UHGV virus genome: UHGV-0128598
Length of the DNA stretch: 11,616 nucleotides
Strand: one strand, 5' to 3'
DNA from: a virus
Both the position numbers and the translations under genes were made by a program. Each line of letters starts with the position of its first letter. The first letter of the stretch is position 1. Shown here piece after piece: positions 1 through 11,577 of the stretch. Below the pieces are notes generated by a model. The model was not told the origin of the DNA. It searched no databases and was given only the letters and a program-made list of their open reading frames with translations.

Positions 1-182
1 TGCGGGAAAGCAGACGCAAGAAATAGCGGCAATGTCTGTCCGTCCAGTCGAGCATCGGCGCGATGGAAAAACGTGAAGGGCTGTATCCCGGCGTTTTTCC
101 TCTGTTAACGCTGTTCTGGTGTGGGTTGTGCGATTCTTTATTTTCGTGCATTTTTTGTCTTTATGTCGTATTTTTTCTTTAT

Positions 183-220
183 CAGCACCCCCAACAGCAC
201 CCCAGATTCATGGGGTGCTG
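183..220 (+). promoter_or_regulatory. Tandem direct repeat (CAGCACCCC x2) and perfect 9-bp inverted repeat (CAGCACCCC-8 nt-GGGGTGCTG) in the integrase 5' leader
   Basis: Read directly: cagcaccccc at 183-192 and cagcacccc at 195-203; the latter pairs with ggggtgctg at 212-220. It lies about 20 nt upstream of the int ATG (241) and just 5' of an AAGGA ribosome-binding site. A T-rich imperfectly repeated tract lies further upstream (about 130-180). Function (operator, arm-type site, or leader structure) is inferred. Confidence 0.4.
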
Positions 221-240
221 AACGAAGGTAAAGGAAAAGC

Positions 241-1329
241 ATGGCCTACTATAGCATAGAAAAACGTCAACGCGCCGATGGGACTTTACGCTACCGCTGC
301 ACCGTGGGCGTAAAAGAAGGTGGGAAATATATCTACCGGGAAAACCGAACATTCAGCAAACAGGCCCATGCCAAAACGTGGGGTGCTGGTAGGGTTGCTG
401 AACTGGAAACAAATGGGGTGCCGACCACCAACGACTTAAACAAAATGGTTGTTGGCGATCTGCTCAAACGCTATATCAACGATCCCAACCTCGGCGGCAA
501 AGCCGGGCGCACAAAACGTTATGTACTGGATATGTTGCTGGACTGCAACATCGCCGAAACCCCTCTGACAGACCTTTCAACCAGCCACGTTATCGAGCAT
601 TGCCGCCACAGAAACGGCGCTGGTGCCGGTCCTTCTACTATTAACCACGATGTAAGTTACCTTTCTTCCGTTCTGGCATCCGCCAAACCCGTCTACGGTA
701 TCGACTACACGACCAATCCCGCAACAGATGCAAGACCTCTACTGCTCCAGATGGGGCTGATTGGCAAATCCAAACGCCGCAGCCGCCGCCCTGTGAGCGA
801 CGAACTGGATAGACTGCTCGCAGGGCTTGAGGCCAGAAGCGATCACGTCGCAGCAAAAATCCCCTTCGTTGATATTCTTAACTTCTCAATCCTCAGTTGT
901 ATGCGAGTTGGCGAAGTGTGCAAAATCCGCTGGGAAGATGTAGACGAAAAACAAAAGGCCGTGCTGGTCAGAGACAGAAAAGACCCGCGCAAAAAATCCG
1001 GTAACCATATGCTGGTACCACTTCTCGGCGATGCCTGGAACATAGTGCAACGTCAGCCCAAAATCAGCGAGTTAATTTTCCCTTATAACTCTCGTTCTGT
1101 AACTGCGGGTTTTCAACGTGTCAGGAACGCCCTGGGCATTGAAGACTTGCGCTACCACGATATGCGCCGGGAGGGGGCCAGCAGGCTTTTTGAGGCGGGT
1201 TTTAGTATAGAAGAAGTGGCCCAGGTTACAGGCCATCGGTCTCTTAATGTACTCTGGCAGGTTTATACTGAACTGTTTCCGAAATCCCTGCATGAAAAGT
1301 ACGACGCGCTGCACGCTAAAAAGAAGTAG
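241..1329 (+). CDS. int: Phage tyrosine integrase (site-specific recombinase)
   Basis: 362-aa ORF with ATG start and AAGGA ribosome-binding site 6 nt upstream. C-terminal catalytic region shows the tyrosine-recombinase pattern: R in CMRVGEVCKIRWEDV, H-x-x-R in YHDMRREGASRLF, and H...Y in VTGHRSLNVLWQVYTELF. Sits at the edge of a phage gene block. Confidence 0.85.
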   Translation: MAYYSIEKRQRADGTLRYRCTVGVKEGGKYIYRENRTFSKQAHAKTWGAGRVAELETNGVPTTNDLNKMVVGDLLKRYINDPNLGGKAGRTKRYVLDMLLDCNIAETPLTDLSTSHVIEHCRHRNGAGAGPSTINHDVSYLSSVLASAKPVYGIDYTTNPATDARPLLLQMGLIGKSKRRSRRPVSDELDRLLAGLEARSDHVAAKIPFVDILNFSILSCMRVGEVCKIRWEDVDEKQKAVLVRDRKDPRKKSGNHMLVPLLGDAWNIVQRQPKISELIFPYNSRSVTAGFQRVRNALGIEDLRYHDMRREGASRLFEAGFSIEEVAQVTGHRSLNVLWQVYTELFPKSLHEKYDALHAKKK

Positions 1330-2587: not shown

Positions 2588-2595
2588 GGTGATGT

Positions 2596-2610
2596 GGTCG
2601 GAATCCTGAC
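2596..2610. repeat. Copy A (degenerate) of the 16-bp inverted-repeat motif GGTCGGAATCCCGACC
   Basis: GGTCGGAATCCTGAC read directly; differs from copies B and C by one substitution, with the final base absent (next base is T). Lies in the acyltransferase-holin intergenic region, 55 nt upstream of the holin ATG. Confidence 0.6.
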
Positions 2611-2651
2611 TATTGGAGGTATTGACCCGAGAGCCAACATAATGAATTCAT

Positions 2652-6342: not shown

Positions 6343-7953
6343 TTAATAATCGACTTCGACCTCATGGTCTCCGTCACTTAACTGCCAATGTTCCCGCGAT
6401 TGTCCGGTCGGAATCCCGACCACTTTGCCGATACGAACCGGCGTTGCACTAATAGCACCCGCACCAGAATCAATGAAATCGTCCGGCTGGTTGGTCAGTG
6501 CCGGGTTAAAGTCCCGCATCTGGTCGTACATCGGGCCATCAAGCACGTCAGTGTGCGCCCACAGGAAACGGGAAGACAAAGGAGCTTCGAACGCATCAAG
6601 GATACGCTTCTGCTTGTTTGTCACGCTGAATTCTTCCCGCACGCCGCACCCGGTACCTTTTAACGCCTGCCGCAGCAGTTTTCCCGCAAAGCCGCCGGGG
6701 CCGTTTACCTCGACACAAACAACGGGGATCTGGTATCGGATAACCAGCTCTTTAATCTGGGCGACCTGCCCGCCAGTAATCTTGTCGTTATCGTCAAACT
6801 CTGCCAGTTCACCAGTCAGCTCCTTGCAAACATGCCAGTACAGATGTCCGCGCGCGTCAGTCAGTATCAGGGATAACGCTGAGGCGTCCGCTTTCACTTT
6901 ACCGGTTGCCACGTCCCACCACGCCACAGCACCAACAATTTGCGTGCTGCCGAGCCACATCGAGGCGGTACGGTTGGCGTAGCGAATTTCAGGATGGATG
7001 TTGTACTCACGGATGCGATCAGGATCGAGACGAACGTCGCCAACGGGTTTACTGTGCAGCTGGTACTGGCTGTCCCACTCGTTAACGGTGCGACATTCTT
7101 TACGGCGCAACTCCAGCTCGTCATGATCGAATCGCTCAGGCCAGGCACATCCGGCGTAGAAATCAATAACCGTCTCTGGCGCCGCAGCAAACTCCACGCC
7201 GTCGGCGGTCAGCTTGTAGTCAACATCCTCGACCAGCAGTCGCGCCGCTTTATGGATGCCCGCGAAAACGTACTCCGGCCGGAACGGAATAACGTAGCGC
7301 AGCTGCGTGGCATCCTTCGCCTCGATGCGCTTTTCTTTCTCAAACAGTTTAATGGTCAGACAGTCAGCACCTGCCGATTCCATTTCATCGTAGAGGCTGT
7401 CATGTGTGTGCGGTGTACCGATAAAGAGCTTTCGCCCGCCGGGGATCAGGATGTGAGTTTGCTCGCTCAGGCGGTATCGCAGTTTCTCACGCGCTTCCGG
7501 CGTCTGGATGTTGCCGGGGACTTCCACGTCGTCGTTCTGGCACTCATTTGCACGCGCGCCGGTAACGTTCGACAGGATACCTTTTGCGAACATGCTCGCG
7601 TTACGCATATCCAGCGAACCGTTAACCCACCACTGCTCGACTGTGCCGAGTCCATCCGGCAACATGCCTTTTGTCAGGGGGTGATTGCGTAAAACGTTCT
7701 GCGTATCGCGGCTGGTTTTGCGCGCTGTGGAATCTGATTCAGACTGGTGCAGGACCCGGTACTGGCGGTCGCAGTAATATCGCCATGCGTTATAAACGCC
7801 CAGTATGGTAGATTTACCGAAACCACGAAAACAGCGAAGCACCGCAAGATTTCCGCGATGCTCCAGCCAGTGACAGGCACGATAGTGGCAGTCCGGAACG
7901 TCCCAGTTCATCCGCTCCGCCCACATTAAAAAGAAGGCGAGGAACGAAATCAT
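6343..7953 (-). CDS. Terminase large subunit, T7 gp19-like (DNA maturase B)
   Basis: 536 aa, ATG start. Walker A in RGFGKSTILG, plus DDVEVP...AREKL and FIGTPHTHDSLYDE, which resemble T7 gp19 as recalled (AFRGIGKS, ADDVEIP...AREKL, YLGTPQT..LY). Start overlaps the upstream gene stop as ATGA. Confidence 0.85.
   Translation of the reverse strand: MISFLAFFLMWAERMNWDVPDCHYRACHWLEHRGNLAVLRCFRGFGKSTILGVYNAWRYYCDRQYRVLHQSESDSTARKTSRDTQNVLRNHPLTKGMLPDGLGTVEQWWVNGSLDMRNASMFAKGILSNVTGARANECQNDDVEVPGNIQTPEAREKLRYRLSEQTHILIPGGRKLFIGTPHTHDSLYDEMESAGADCLTIKLFEKEKRIEAKDATQLRYVIPFRPEYVFAGIHKAARLLVEDVDYKLTADGVEFAAAPETVIDFYAGCAWPERFDHDELELRRKECRTVNEWDSQYQLHSKPVGDVRLDPDRIREYNIHPEIRYANRTASMWLGSTQIVGAVAWWDVATGKVKADASALSLILTDARGHLYWHVCKELTGELAEFDDNDKITGGQVAQIKELVIRYQIPVVCVEVNGPGGFAGKLLRQALKGTGCGVREEFSVTNKQKRILDAFEAPLSSRFLWAHTDVLDGPMYDQMRDFNPALTNQPDDFIDSGAGAISATPVRIGKVVGIPTGQSREHWQLSDGDHEVEVDY
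6406..6421. repeat. Copy B of the 16-bp inverted-repeat motif GGTCGGAATCCCGACC (6-bp arms, 4-nt spacer)
   Basis: Exact 16-mer shared with copy C. Lies inside the last 26 codons or so of the terminase gene (encoding ...VGIPTG...), 84 nt upstream of the tailspike ATG. Confidence 0.65.
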
Positions 7954-8319: not shown

Positions 8320-8337
8320 ATGGTGTATGCTTTTTGA

Positions 8338-8353
8338 GGTCGGAATCCCGACC
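8338..8353. repeat. Copy C of the 16-bp inverted-repeat motif GGTCGGAATCCCGACC
   Basis: Exact 16-mer, starting 2 nt after the stop of the gp16-like gene on the minus strand, 46 nt upstream of the small terminase ATG and just upstream of the terminator-like hairpin. Confidence 0.65.
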
Positions 8354-8355
8354 GA

Positions 8356-9870
8356 TTACCGCATGCCGGGGTCAACCTGATTTATCAGCGGCGCTATCCA
8401 GAAAAGATTATTACCCGGCAGCAGCGTACGCACGTTATGCAGTACCCGATCGCCAGCATCACCGTTGAGCACTCCGGCGGTCACATCGGTGACGGTATCC
8501 AGCAAGCCAAACGTCGGGCCGAGAGCGGAGCCAATAAAGCCACGGCTGGCATAGCGAGACTGTGTGCCGGTACCGAGCAGTGCACCCAGCCCCACCATAC
8601 CGCCGGAGGCTTTTTCTGCCATGTTGTTATATTCCATCAGCGGGCCGAGAATACCGGACCGGTCGATACCTTCAATGGCCAGTTTCTGAGGCGACCAGTC
8701 AACCTCTTTACCATTTGCGGATTGTTTAAGTGCGTACGTCAGTGCGCCGAGGCTAATCTGGAAAGCGGTACCGTAATAAAACTGTCCGGTTCCCTCCTGC
8801 AGGCCGCCCAGCGTTGCGCGGTTGTAGGACGCGGTAGCGAACGATTTAAACTGGAAGATAGTTTTACCCAGTGGCGTGCTGGCCCACAATGGCGTATCGC
8901 CGATCCCCGGTGTGATAACTGTATTGTTAACGTCTTTGAGCACGGCCGACTGAAAAACGCCAGCCACATGCTGATCGTCCCATTTTTCAAAATTGCCGAT
9001 ATGCCAGCCATTGATTACCTCACCGTGTTTTTCGAATTCGCTGCGAATACGCGCGGCCATATTGTCGTTAATGCCGAGCTTGGCAAGGCGGCGGCCCGCA
9101 AACGCGCCGGACAGAATGCCGTCGGAGGTGATCATGCCGTTTACCGATTTGTTCATATCGTCGAAGTGGCCCATCAGCGTGAGCTTGCCGAACGCATCGG
9201 TGACGCGCTCCATTCCCGCCTCTACCGCTGTAGTGCGGGAGGAGCTGTCTACCAGGTCACCCATCGTACGCGCACGGGTATGCAGGATGGTTTCCAGCCC
9301 GACGGCCATTTTTAACTGTTCGGCCCGGCTGGCCTTGAATGCCGGCGACCGGGTTATCAGCGCAGAGTAACCGCGCATGGTATTGCCAAACCCGTTAACC
9401 ATCACACCGCGGGCGAGATCAGGAATAGCGGAAACGGTCATACCGCCCAGCTTGGTGACAAAGTTGGCGCTACGCAGAAACGCACCGGCGCGAACGAAAA
9501 ATGATGATGGGTCATCCGGCATACCGTAGGTACCGACGAGGCGATCGCGAAGCGCCAGAATATCGCGCAGATCGGCTTCGCGCGCCTTCGCCAGCTTTTC
9601 CTGCTCTGCCGGGCGTAACCGCATCAGCGCGTCGTATTCGTCCTGGATGGCAGCGAGCTGCGAATCCAGCGACTTGTTGCCAAAGGTACGGGTTAATTCA
9701 ATTTCCGCTGAGGCTTCGCGGATATGACGCTGCAGGACGTAGTTTGCATCGCTCTCCAGATAATCTTTCATCAGGCGATCGGGAACGCTCAACGTACGCG
9801 ATTTGGTGCTGCCCGGCGATTTCAGCATCTTCGCGGGACATGGTTTTCTCACCGCGTGACCACCAGTCAA
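8356..9870 (-). CDS. Internal virion (ejection) protein, T7 gp16-like, C-terminal portion; apparently separated from the N-terminal portion by a frameshift
   Basis: 504-aa ORF. Gly/Ala-rich hydrophobic stretches and a FQFKSF motif resembling the C-terminal part of T7 gp16 as recalled. The first 30 codons or so look non-protein-like and overlap the upstream ORF, so the true N-terminal boundary is probably the frame junction near 9795-9802. Confidence 0.6.
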   Translation of the reverse strand: MTGGHAVRKPCPAKMLKSPGSTKSRTLSVPDRLMKDYLESDANYVLQRHIREASAEIELTRTFGNKSLDSQLAAIQDEYDALMRLRPAEQEKLAKAREADLRDILALRDRLVGTYGMPDDPSSFFVRAGAFLRSANFVTKLGGMTVSAIPDLARGVMVNGFGNTMRGYSALITRSPAFKASRAEQLKMAVGLETILHTRARTMGDLVDSSSRTTAVEAGMERVTDAFGKLTLMGHFDDMNKSVNGMITSDGILSGAFAGRRLAKLGINDNMAARIRSEFEKHGEVINGWHIGNFEKWDDQHVAGVFQSAVLKDVNNTVITPGIGDTPLWASTPLGKTIFQFKSFATASYNRATLGGLQEGTGQFYYGTAFQISLGALTYALKQSANGKEVDWSPQKLAIEGIDRSGILGPLMEYNNMAEKASGGMVGLGALLGTGTQSRYASRGFIGSALGPTFGLLDTVTDVTAGVLNGDAGDRVLHNVRTLLPGNNLFWIAPLINQVDPGMR

Positions 9871-11182
9871 CCAGCATATTGCGGAATTTATCTCGCTCGC
9901 TAACGATTTTACCCACCTTGTACACGCGCGGAAAATAGCTGGTCTGTCCCATCGCTTTCAGTTCGGCATCCGGCGGGAGTAAGCCCAGTTCCTGCTGGGC
10001 TGTCTTCACGCGGTTAATGACCGTACGCATTGCCTGCGCAGCTTCCTGCACTTTTGCATTAACGTGCACGTCGCCGTTACGCAGCGCCTCGCCAACCTGT
10101 TCACGGAAGGCCGTATAACCCAGATCGCCGCCTTCGGCTTTATACTGGGTGTATGCCTGCTTATTCGCAGTAACGACGGCCGCCTCTTCGCGGTGCCAGC
10201 CACGTACGCGCGTCTCGGCTGCTACCGGTGTTTCGATACCGCGCAGGTTGCCTTCCAGCGTGAAGTTATTCTCCGCCAACTCCAGCGCTGTCCGGCGCGC
10301 TTCTTTTGATGGGGATTCCATCAGGCGGGTGATCGGCGTCAGATAGCTACCGGCCTTTTTAGCCAGCTTGCCGAGCGGGCCGCCAGACACCGGTGTGAGG
10401 TCTTCCAGCGTTGCTTCGCGAATACGCATGGCGCCGACGCTGCCACCGTTCGGTAAAGTATCCGCCAGGGCGTCAGCTGCGTTGTTAATCGTTGGCGCGG
10501 CATTCATGTTATCGAGCGCCTCCGCCACTTCCCGTGTAGCCGCGTTTCTTACCGATGGGGTGATCATCGCGCCAGCAGTAGCAAATACACCGCTGAGAAG
10601 CGCGCCGGCTGTAATGTGCGCGGCGCTCTCCCTTGCTGTTCTGGTGTACTGCTCGTTATTGAGCGCAACCTCGCTAAGTGCGGTACCGGCGGCGCCAATA
10701 GCAATCTGAGAACCAATACGAGCAGCCAGGCTTCCCTGCGCACCGGGAATAAACATCGATGCGACCGTGACAGGGTCGATAACCCCGGCGGCGATACTGG
10801 CCAGAGTTCCTTCAGCGCCTGCCTCAGACAAAACCCGACGGTCTTCATTTTCATCGTCTATCTGGTTTTTTATCCAGGCGGTTTCCTCTGGCGATCGAGA
10901 ATCCGCAAAGGCGGATCCCCATTGTTCGTACCCCTTTAGTTCGTTTTTATCAGAATAAGGGTTATACCCGTCCGCCGGTTCGAATTGTTTGGCCGAGCGG
11001 AACATTCCAGCCAGCAGGTTATTCTGACGAAATGCAGCGCCCCACACAGACGGCTCATCCTGCTGAGGTGCTGGGTTAGTACCTTCAGGCAAAGGCACAT
11101 CAAATCCGGTAGGTGCAGCCAGGACATTACCCGCCGGAGTGAATCCGTTATTGAGTTCTTCAGGGGTGGCGTATACCGGCAT
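9698..11182 (-). CDS. Internal virion (ejection) protein, T7 gp16-like, N-terminal/central portion
   Basis: 494-aa ORF, ATG start overlapping the upstream stop (TAATG). Motifs resemble T7 gp16 as recalled: TPEEL, SEAGAEGTLASIAAGVIDPVTVASMFIPG (compare AGIIGAGVDPLSYVPMVG) and EKTMSREDAEI (compare AKMSREETRY). The last 30 codons or so are low-complexity and overlap the next ORF in another frame. No N-terminal transglycosylase-like region is evident. Confidence 0.6.
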   Translation of the reverse strand: MPVYATPEELNNGFTPAGNVLAAPTGFDVPLPEGTNPAPQQDEPSVWGAAFRQNNLLAGMFRSAKQFEPADGYNPYSDKNELKGYEQWGSAFADSRSPEETAWIKNQIDDENEDRRVLSEAGAEGTLASIAAGVIDPVTVASMFIPGAQGSLAARIGSQIAIGAAGTALSEVALNNEQYTRTARESAAHITAGALLSGVFATAGAMITPSVRNAATREVAEALDNMNAAPTINNAADALADTLPNGGSVGAMRIREATLEDLTPVSGGPLGKLAKKAGSYLTPITRLMESPSKEARRTALELAENNFTLEGNLRGIETPVAAETRVRGWHREEAAVVTANKQAYTQYKAEGGDLGYTAFREQVGEALRNGDVHVNAKVQEAAQAMRTVINRVKTAQQELGLLPPDAELKAMGQTSYFPRVYKVGKIVSERDKFRNMLVDWWSRGEKTMSREDAEIAGQHQIAYVERSRSPDERLSGERCKLRPAASYPRSLSGN

Positions 11183-11577
11183 TATTCAGTGCTCCACGAA
11201 AAGTAATTTTTAACCCTGTCCATGCGCTCGTTATGCAGGCGCTTGTACTGCTCATCGAGCGCACGGTGCTTATCTTTGAACCCACGAATATCCTGCCCGC
11301 GTTGCAGCTCATTGCGATCATGTTCTTCGCGCTCTTCCTGCATTTTTTTGTATGGCGCCCACTCTTCCAGTGACGGTTTCCAGCGCATCGGCCTGCCGTA
11401 CGAATCGTAGAACGGTTGTACCGCCTCGATACCATCCTTATCTTTTGTTCGCACCATGATGGCGTAATCGCCATTGCGGGCCGTCAGTACATCAGGGGTA
11501 ATTTCCAGATCGCCGCCAATACGCGACTCCGGCGTTTTGCTGGTGACAGGCGCTGCGTTACCGGGTGATGCTGCCAA
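11182..11577 (-). CDS. Hypothetical protein, translationally coupled to the gp16-like gene
   Basis: The track ORF starts at a TTG (11577) with no ribosome-binding site. The first ATG is at 11457 (MVRTKDKDG..., about 91 aa). Charged, helix-like C-terminus. Stop overlaps the next start (TAATG). A different frame is open from the window edge to a stop at 11484-11486, so an upstream gene may be cut by the window. Start and reality of this ORF are uncertain. Confidence 0.35.
   Translation of the reverse strand: MAASPGNAAPVTSKTPESRIGGDLEITPDVLTARNGDYAIMVRTKDKDGIEAVQPFYDSYGRPMRWKPSLEEWAPYKKMQEEREEHDRNELQRGQDIRGFKDKHRALDEQYKRLHNERMDRVKNYFSWSTE

Follow-up and report, generated by a model that had tools for sequence, protein, structure and literature searches.

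The DNA analyzed here, hereafter called the window (11,616 nucleotides; UHGV virus genome UHGV-0128598), shares 100% identity over bases 1 to 1400 with E. coli STEC383 (NZ_CP091026.1). According to the RefSeq annotation of this genome, two divergent and adjacent genes are found there, dusA at 1 to 151 (minus strand) and int at 241 to 1329 (plus strand), separated by a divergent spacer of 89 bp. To the right of int, the prophage carries lysis genes and the genes for a tail fibre, terminase, portal, and capsid, and it also encodes a VapE primase, a LexA-family repressor, a DNA polymerase, and an SNF2 helicase. Its far end consists of a PrtN-family gene followed by a leftover dusA 5' fragment and then by host zur. 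The PrtN-family gene, rdfN (L003 33752-34003, where L003 is the STEC383 locus), matched the Pfam family PF11112 PyocinActivator (E = 5.8e-26), and the PrtN homologue RdfN has been described as the excision factor of dusA elements (PMC8409611).

The 5' end of dusA is a known target of dusA-specific integrases, which recognize a 21-bp core and replace the 5' end of the gene (Farrugia et al. 2015; PMC4482086). The divergence of int and dusA, together with rdfN and the dusA fragment at the far end, is the signature of dusA-specific integrase elements (PMC4482086). Scans of the window for tRNA genes and Rfam families gave no match, indicating that the target is neither a tRNA gene nor a known RNA element. 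Judging from these comparisons, the window belongs to an E. coli prophage of 34 kb whose insertion site is the 5' end of dusA; among dusA-specific integrase prophages it is typical, and the locus is of a known kind. Beyond base 77, the sequence was carried by only 3 of 5426 complete E. coli genomes, and in the approximately 4,380 E. coli records with an empty site the match was confined to bases 1 to 77. The region upstream of int that had been flagged by the first-pass annotation (120-240) is thus absent from non-lysogens. The positions of all features are given in the table.

Features of the int-dusA region and of the far prophage end (window positions unless preceded by L003)
Feature	Position	Strand	Basis or remark
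Host dusA CDS (tRNA dihydrouridine synthase A), chromosomal side of attL	1-47	-	Annotation; ~4,380 E. coli records
Semi-conserved att core motif, TCCAGTCGAGCATCGGCGC	~43-61		Contains TCGAGCAT
Crossover segment, TCGAGCAT	48-55		Four-way alignment
Phage-supplied dusA 5' replacement, codons 1-32	56-151	-	Annotation; continuous translation; in frame with host dusA
T-rich tract	130-182		33 of 53 T (62%); first dusA codons, dusA 5' leader, TATTTT block
Arm-type site P'1, CAGCACCCC	183-191	+	Candidate
Arm-type site P'2, CAGCACCCC	195-203	+	Candidate; 12-bp period from P'1
Arm-type site P'3, inverted copy, TGGGGTGCTG	211-220	-	Candidate; with P'2, hairpin potential at 195-220
int Shine-Dalgarno, AAGGA	231-235	+	Read from sequence
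dusA-specific tyrosine integrase, 362 amino acids	241-1329	+	Pfam Phage_integrase, residues 187-346
Predicted arm-binding domain, int codons 1-62	241-426	+	AlphaFold2
Possible extra arm-type copy in int, TGGGGTGCT	380-388	-	W-G-A codons
Possible extra arm-type copy in int, GGGGTGCCG	415-423	-	G-V-P codons
P-arm repeats, two copies, CAGCACCCCtaTAGCACCCC	L003 34015-34034		~43-62 bp from core, beside rdfN

The window and the STEC383 prophage differ by 77 bp, which are present in STEC383 and missing from the window (window 9814-9830; L003 9819-9890). This loss splits a virion gene of 967 amino acids (8356-11259 in STEC383) into two overlapping open reading frames (8356-9870 and 9698-11182); either it is a true frameshifting deletion or the window comes from another strain. 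In addition, the palindromic sequence GGTCGGAATCCCGACC is found five times in the prophage (window 2594-2619, 6404-6429, and 8336-8361; L003 18560-18585 and 22021-22046), mostly at gene boundaries and on the late-gene strand, and may represent a repeated terminator or a regulatory hairpin. An identical integrase (100% at the protein level and 99.66% at the DNA level over 3.2 kb) was found in Shimwellia pseudoproteus DSM 3038 (L067), and a 97%-identical one in a Klebsiella pneumoniae cluster (P0001). The presence of the same integrase in these genera, set against its rarity in complete E. coli genomes, points to a recent intergeneric spread.

We aligned attB (the empty dusA of strain 0H25), attL (the window), attR (the far prophage end), and the attP of YeP1, a Yersinia phage with 79% integrase identity to the window. 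TCGAGCAT was the sole stretch identical in all four sequences. Indeed, attL agreed with the empty-site attB through position 55 and differed to the right, with host sequence up to 47, the common TCGAGCAT, and phage sequence from 56 on, while attR, in which the copy of TCGAGCAT lies at L003 34077-34084, showed the mirror pattern. Similarity in the flanks of TCGAGCAT was shared by all four sequences. By this four-way comparison, recombination took place inside TCGAGCAT. For the Stx phage phi1720a-02, the crossover has been mapped experimentally to a 7-base core within attB TCCAGTCGAGCATGGGAGC (PMC6328086), and the window integrase is 69.6% identical to the Int of this phage. Together with the alignment, this core sets the prophage boundary within the window, about 70 bp to the left of the flagged interval. 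The boundary had been expected in that interval or just left of the window; it is close by but falls inside the window, and the interval itself, which had been thought to include a possible att core, is entirely phage DNA. For annotation purposes, the prophage boundary is now fixed to 8 bases.

The same comparison shows that the phage supplies its own in-frame dusA start. The ATG start codon is located at 151-149 on the minus strand, the open reading frame runs unbroken across the junction, and the native 5' fragment, displaced to the far prophage end, persists there as a pseudogene (L003 34076-34180). GTGCAT, corresponding to the ATG-CAC of dusA, was invariant among 24 diverse relatives. The phage dusA start resembles the native 5' end (L006 ~400-510) in its length, which is equal, in its ATG-CAC start, and in sharing CGTGCATTTT across the start codon; the phage-borne segment was probably captured from a host dusA. 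Similarly, in another dusA element, a replacement 5' end/N-terminus and a new, weaker promoter have been demonstrated by lacZ fusions (PMC8409611). The left third of the flagged interval (120-151) thus contains a dusA start on the minus strand that the first-pass annotation had missed, and what looked like an intergenic regulatory region codes in part for the beginning of a host tRNA-modification enzyme whose expression the phage has to maintain.

The T-rich tract described in the same interval was confirmed, and 130-182 is even the T-richest 53-nt stretch of the window. Part of this richness is explained by the dusA codons at 120-151 (ATG CAC GAA AAT AAA GAA on the minus strand). The imperfect direct repeats that had been reported within the tract (TTTTTTGTCTTTAT at 151-164, TTTTTTCTTTAT at 171-182, and TTCTTTAT twice) did not hold up: they are low-complexity matches, and we set them aside because the left copy was not conserved in relatives such as YeP1. 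A TATTTT block (169-174) was conserved in the 24 relatives, exactly 17 nt from GTGCAT and just before P'1. Located between core and arm sites, the tract may serve as a promoter, as a segment of bent DNA, or both. The TATTTT block could be a weak int promoter or, read on the other strand, part of the dusA signals, and bending of the long arm might come from the T-runs centred near 142, 153, and 173, which show approximate helical phasing.

Between this tract and int, the tandem repeat noted by the first-pass annotation was recovered as two direct copies of CAGCACCCC, followed by a third, inverted copy; two further copies were found at the far prophage end. The motif AGCACCCC occurred eight times in the 49 kb around the prophage, compared to 1.12 expected, and none of 100 shuffles reached this number. 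Six of the eight copies were located within ~340 bp of the att core: the three P' copies at 183-220, the intragenic copy at 380-387, and the far-end pair. The attP reconstructed from the two ends spans ~235 bp and contains two plus three candidate arm sites.

Predicted attPs were also found in the free-phage relatives YeP1, EKP1, and mEp460. That of YeP1 harbors the same five 9-mers with different spacers (P arm, CAGCACCCCaaTAGCACCCC; P' arm, CAGCACCCCataCAGCACCCC...GGGGTGCTG; class AGCACCCC). EKP1 carries GGTACACCaaTAGTACACC in the P arm and CAGTACACCaatgAGTACACC...GGTGTACC in the P' arm (class GTACACC), and mEp460, 4F5, Lys8385Vzw, and SKA5 carry GGGTTCCCaaTAGG(C/A)TCCC and AGGTTCCCgcacAGGTTCCC...GGGAACC, respectively (class GGTTCCC). 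Across these three repeat classes of intact phage attPs, all five sites change together and the spacers differ. The two-plus-three layout, distinct from the core and present on both arms, was seen in seven phage attPs. Similarly, a pair of direct copies with a 12-bp period was constant among 45 distinct int-upstream regions (IMG/VR and GTDB genomes), in which the 9-mer switched in concert by lineage (CAGCACCCC, CGGTACACC, CAGGACACC, CAGGTTCCC, CAGTACGCC, and others). Class purity was lower in the P-arm sites than in the P' sites: IME1369_02 has CAGGACACC together with TAGCACCCC, and the P-arm sites of Kp4882-1 harbor one mismatch each. In four relatives (L085, L009, L062, and L072), int is a truncated pseudogene (144 to 277 amino acids) and the arm repeats are intact; these appear to be immobilised, decaying elements.

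Two attP-like junctions in chromosomes or prophage contigs, L189 (4590-4900) and L088 (2740-3000), combine rdfN and a P arm of one class with the core and a P' arm of another, the latter adjoining a deleted or decayed int. They are probably tandem arrays of dusA elements from different classes. Collection scans with GTACACCN{4,5}GTACACC and GGACACCN{4,5}GGACACC were unspecific and returned unrelated contigs, L189 being the only relevant one among the matches listed. A locus search based on rdfN gave few paired arms, most contigs ending right after rdfN.

We also searched for sites of the DNA-bending protein IHF. The sole exact match to the IHF consensus (WATCAANNNNTTR) in the 49 kb, AATCAATAAGTTA, lies in the interval from the P-arm repeats to the core (L003 34044-34056). 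Versions with one mismatch were present at the same place in YeP1, EKP1, and mEp460. Between the core and the P' sites, no IHF-like site was found at up to 1 mismatch.

The integrase was then modelled with AlphaFold2, using a 75-sequence alignment. The predicted N-terminal domain consists of three strands (residues 2-10, 16-26, and 29-38) and a helix (41-58), with a pLDDT of 86 to 88, and a low-confidence linker (61-70) joins it to the core-binding and catalytic domains. With the whole model, the top Foldseek match was full-length lambda integrase (1z1b; E = 1.7e-10), aligned over the whole length. No Pfam arm-binding family matched residues 1-70, a PDB sequence search with the integrase retrieved catalytic domains only, and fold searches with the isolated N-domain gave no decisive match.

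We compared the N-terminal domain among four repeat classes. Residues 5-7, 21-24, and 29-35 varied with the class of the repeat, reading SIE/TVGV/KYIYREN in class AGCACCCC, NIV/TAGV/KH(L/I)HRET in class GTACACC, TI(D/S)/SVS(V/I)/KRIYNES in class GGACACC, and NIE/TV(L/M)I/(V)ITFRES in class GGTTCCC. The helix that follows the sheet (41-58; KQAHAKTWG..RV.ELE) was conserved across classes. Integrase pairs of the same class differed in 3 to 8% of residues 1-38 and in 17 to 27% of the remainder. Pairs of different classes with a backbone divergence of 15 to 16% differed in 24 to 37% of residues 1-38. At a backbone divergence of 15 to 17%, 9 to 14 of these 38 positions differed between classes, compared to 1 of 38 within a class. 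The exceptions to this co-variation of sites and N-domain were the mixed P arm of IME1369_02 and the hybrid junctions L189 and L088.

Taken together, these data lead us to propose, with a probability of roughly 80%, that positions 48-240 comprise the core and the P' arm, the half nearest int, of the att site of a 34-kb temperate phage and that the repeats are arm sites of its Int. The first-pass annotation had suspected that prophage att-arm DNA lies just upstream of int, and the candidate arm repeats at 183-220 agree with this suggestion. Co-variation and analogy make the three CAGCACCCC copies most likely arm-type sites for the integrase N-domain, because copies are present beside the core at the far end, all five sites change in concert, and the N-terminal sheet of the integrase changes with them.

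It is unlikely, in our view, that the selected feature is instead an RNA hairpin at 195-220, formed in the int leader or in an antisense/dusA transcript and controlling translation or mRNA stability. The first-pass annotation had described a perfect 9-bp hairpin; the pairing is indeed perfect, but the stem is 10 bp long, with arms at 195-204 and 211-220 (100% complementary) and a 6-nt loop. This hairpin lies 10 nt upstream of the int Shine-Dalgarno, folds as RNA with -22.3 kcal/mol (z = -2.9 versus shuffles; z = -3.5 for the minus strand), and its arms co-vary across lineages. However, P'1 and the two P-arm copies 34 kb away co-vary as well, outside any hairpin. Xenorhabdus relatives lack the inverted copy, Serratia relatives have a direct copy in its place, and in several GGTTCCC and GGACACC lineages P'3 fits P'1 (9/9) better than P'2 (7/9), to which it should pair. 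A terminator can be dismissed because no U-run follows the hairpin: there is no T-run past 220 on the plus strand or before 195 on the minus strand. A scan for consensus promoters and terminators did not flag the hairpin either, and found no sigma-70 promoter in 1-1500. The 10-bp stem exists because P'3 is an inverted copy of P'2, and the hairpin, by sequence comparison, looks like a by-product of the inverted site, the conserved entity being the set of sites rather than the hairpin, to which the first-pass annotation had given too much weight. A secondary effect of the hairpin on the int mRNA is possible in the phage of the window.

Quite unlikely, too, is that the repeats are bound by the PrtN-like directionality factor RdfN and not by the integrase. 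Directionality factors do bind att arms, and rdfN directly adjoins the P-arm repeats, which in one relative (L114) even overlap its 3' end. Nevertheless, these factors usually take one arm, and five copies distributed over both arms are the pattern of an integrase. Furthermore, the class of the repeat follows the integrase N-terminal sheet and does not track RdfN, since the RdfN of one GTACACC-class element is 76% identical to that of the prophage and the RdfN proteins of same-class elements are 53 to 84% identical to it. Finally, mEp460-type phages have kept the five sites without rdfN beside the P arm. The first-pass annotation had also named an operator region as a possibility. An operator reading in which a prophage repressor or host regulator would act on the divergent int and dusA promoters through sites unrelated to recombination is hardly tenable: an 89-bp divergent spacer with repeats and inverted repeats has a geometry typical of operators, but AGCACCCC is absent near the LexA-family repressor gene (L003 25342-25965; immunity region ~25,000-26,000), its other prophage copies are found either next to the att core or within a coding region (15,635), the far-arm copies beside the core have no promoter to regulate, and the repeats co-vary with the integrase.

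Further copies of the arm-type motif are found inside int. The two intragenic copies of class AGCACCCC (int +139 and +174) lie in the region coding for the N-domain, each in a frame of its own. Relatives of the GTACACC class have GGTGTACC at the G-V-P codons of +174; the change is synonymous and agrees with their class. Over four classes, own-class 7-mers amounted to 1.19, 1.0, 0, and 0.65 per int gene, compared to ~0.03 for the motifs of the other classes. These numbers are suggestive of extra sites and are confounded by coding constraint and shared ancestry; the copy at 380-388, in particular, is weak because coding constraint largely explains it. That 380-388 and 415-423 are real integrase sites kept by synonymous codon choice is the smaller possibility. 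A GGGAACC at +759 in GGTTCCC-class int genes was set aside, as it encodes an invariant G-N-H and occurs in closely related sequences.

Under the arm-site reading, the dusA-specific tyrosine integrase that inserted the phage at the 5' end of E. coli dusA would bind, through its N-domain, the three P' sites and the two P-arm sites beside rdfN. As in lambda, integrase molecules on the bent DNA would link arm sites to core sites, giving rise to integrative and excisive complexes. Integrase bound at 183-220, approximately +2 to +40 of the putative TATTTT promoter, would repress its own gene, as has been described for KplE1 intS; such autorepression is probable because the sites lie between the TATTTT block and the int ribosome-binding site. 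The transcription signals for continued dusA expression would likewise have to lie in, or run through, the 89-bp divergent spacer. For the flagged region we infer both int autoregulation and a phage-supplied dusA promoter.

As a more tentative extension, which we hold to be possible rather than probable, dusA integrases might share one chromosomal core and fall into discrete classes of arm site and N-domain (AGCACCCC, GTACACC, GGACACC, GGTTCCC, and others), switchable via a few beta-sheet residues. Competition of elements for the same site may drive this diversification, and the hybrid junctions L189 and L088 as well as genomes with two classes hint at coexisting classes. If this is true, elements of different classes could share a tandem or a genome without excising or capturing each other. 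The dusA-targeting elements, for which the attP map is of interest, include Shiga-toxin phages and mobilisable islands. Additionally, N-domains and arm sites matched by class at high overall identity could offer a data set on how a small DNA-binding fold reads sequence, and the class series could be a source of orthogonal integrase/att pairs with one chromosomal target.

The arrangement can be compared with several known systems. The attP of lambda contains the arm-type sites P1, P2, and P'1 to P'3 as well as IHF sites, and lambda Int has an N-terminal arm-binding domain. The reconstructed attP likewise shows two plus three candidate arm sites, a similar span (~235 bp), and an IHF consensus between arm sites and core. 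In the AlphaFold2 model, the integrase begins with a small domain of sheet plus helix, followed by the low-confidence linker, which may correspond to the arrangement in lambda Int. However, the sequences are unrelated, and the third site of the window is inverted. Unlike in lambda, int is transcribed away from att, and 20 bp lie between its 5' end and the last arm site. The int side carries the long arm (~130-170 bp from the core), which contains coding sequence of a host gene and lacks a detected IHF-like site.

In KplE1, attL overlaps Pint and the integrase IntS represses its own gene (Panis et al. 2010, PMC2951348). Similarly, int of the window adjoins attL, the candidate integrase sites have the putative promoter region on one side and the start codon on the other, and the gene for the excision factor is located at the opposite end and controlled separately. 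The target of KplE1 is a tRNA gene, whereas that of the window is the 5' end of a protein-coding gene, and the window promoter is putative. Functionally, and by analogy, the system would combine lambda-type heterobivalent recombination with a KplE1-like gene order. SXT/R391 elements also integrate into the 5' end of a gene, prfC (PMC8409611), but differ from the window in integrase family, target gene, and element type.

The closest resemblance is to the dusA elements described so far (PMC4482086; PMC6328086; IMEVchUSA3, PMC8409611). In these, as in the prophage analyzed here, int is divergent from dusA, insertion occurs ~100 bp into dusA at a semi-conserved core with TCGAGCAT, a new in-frame dusA 5' end is provided, and the old fragment and a PrtN-like excision factor are found at the far end. 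In the literature searched, arm sites of dusA integrases were undescribed, co-mentions of dusA and arm-type sites being incidental, and the arm sites, the IHF site, and the classes thus appear to be undescribed. Published work (PMC4482086, PMC6328086, and PMC8409611) covers the core and the 21-bp motif only, and none of the three papers uses the word arm; to this, the present analysis adds five arm repeats, an IHF site, and the repeat classes, which together with the core provide a full attP map that can be tested.
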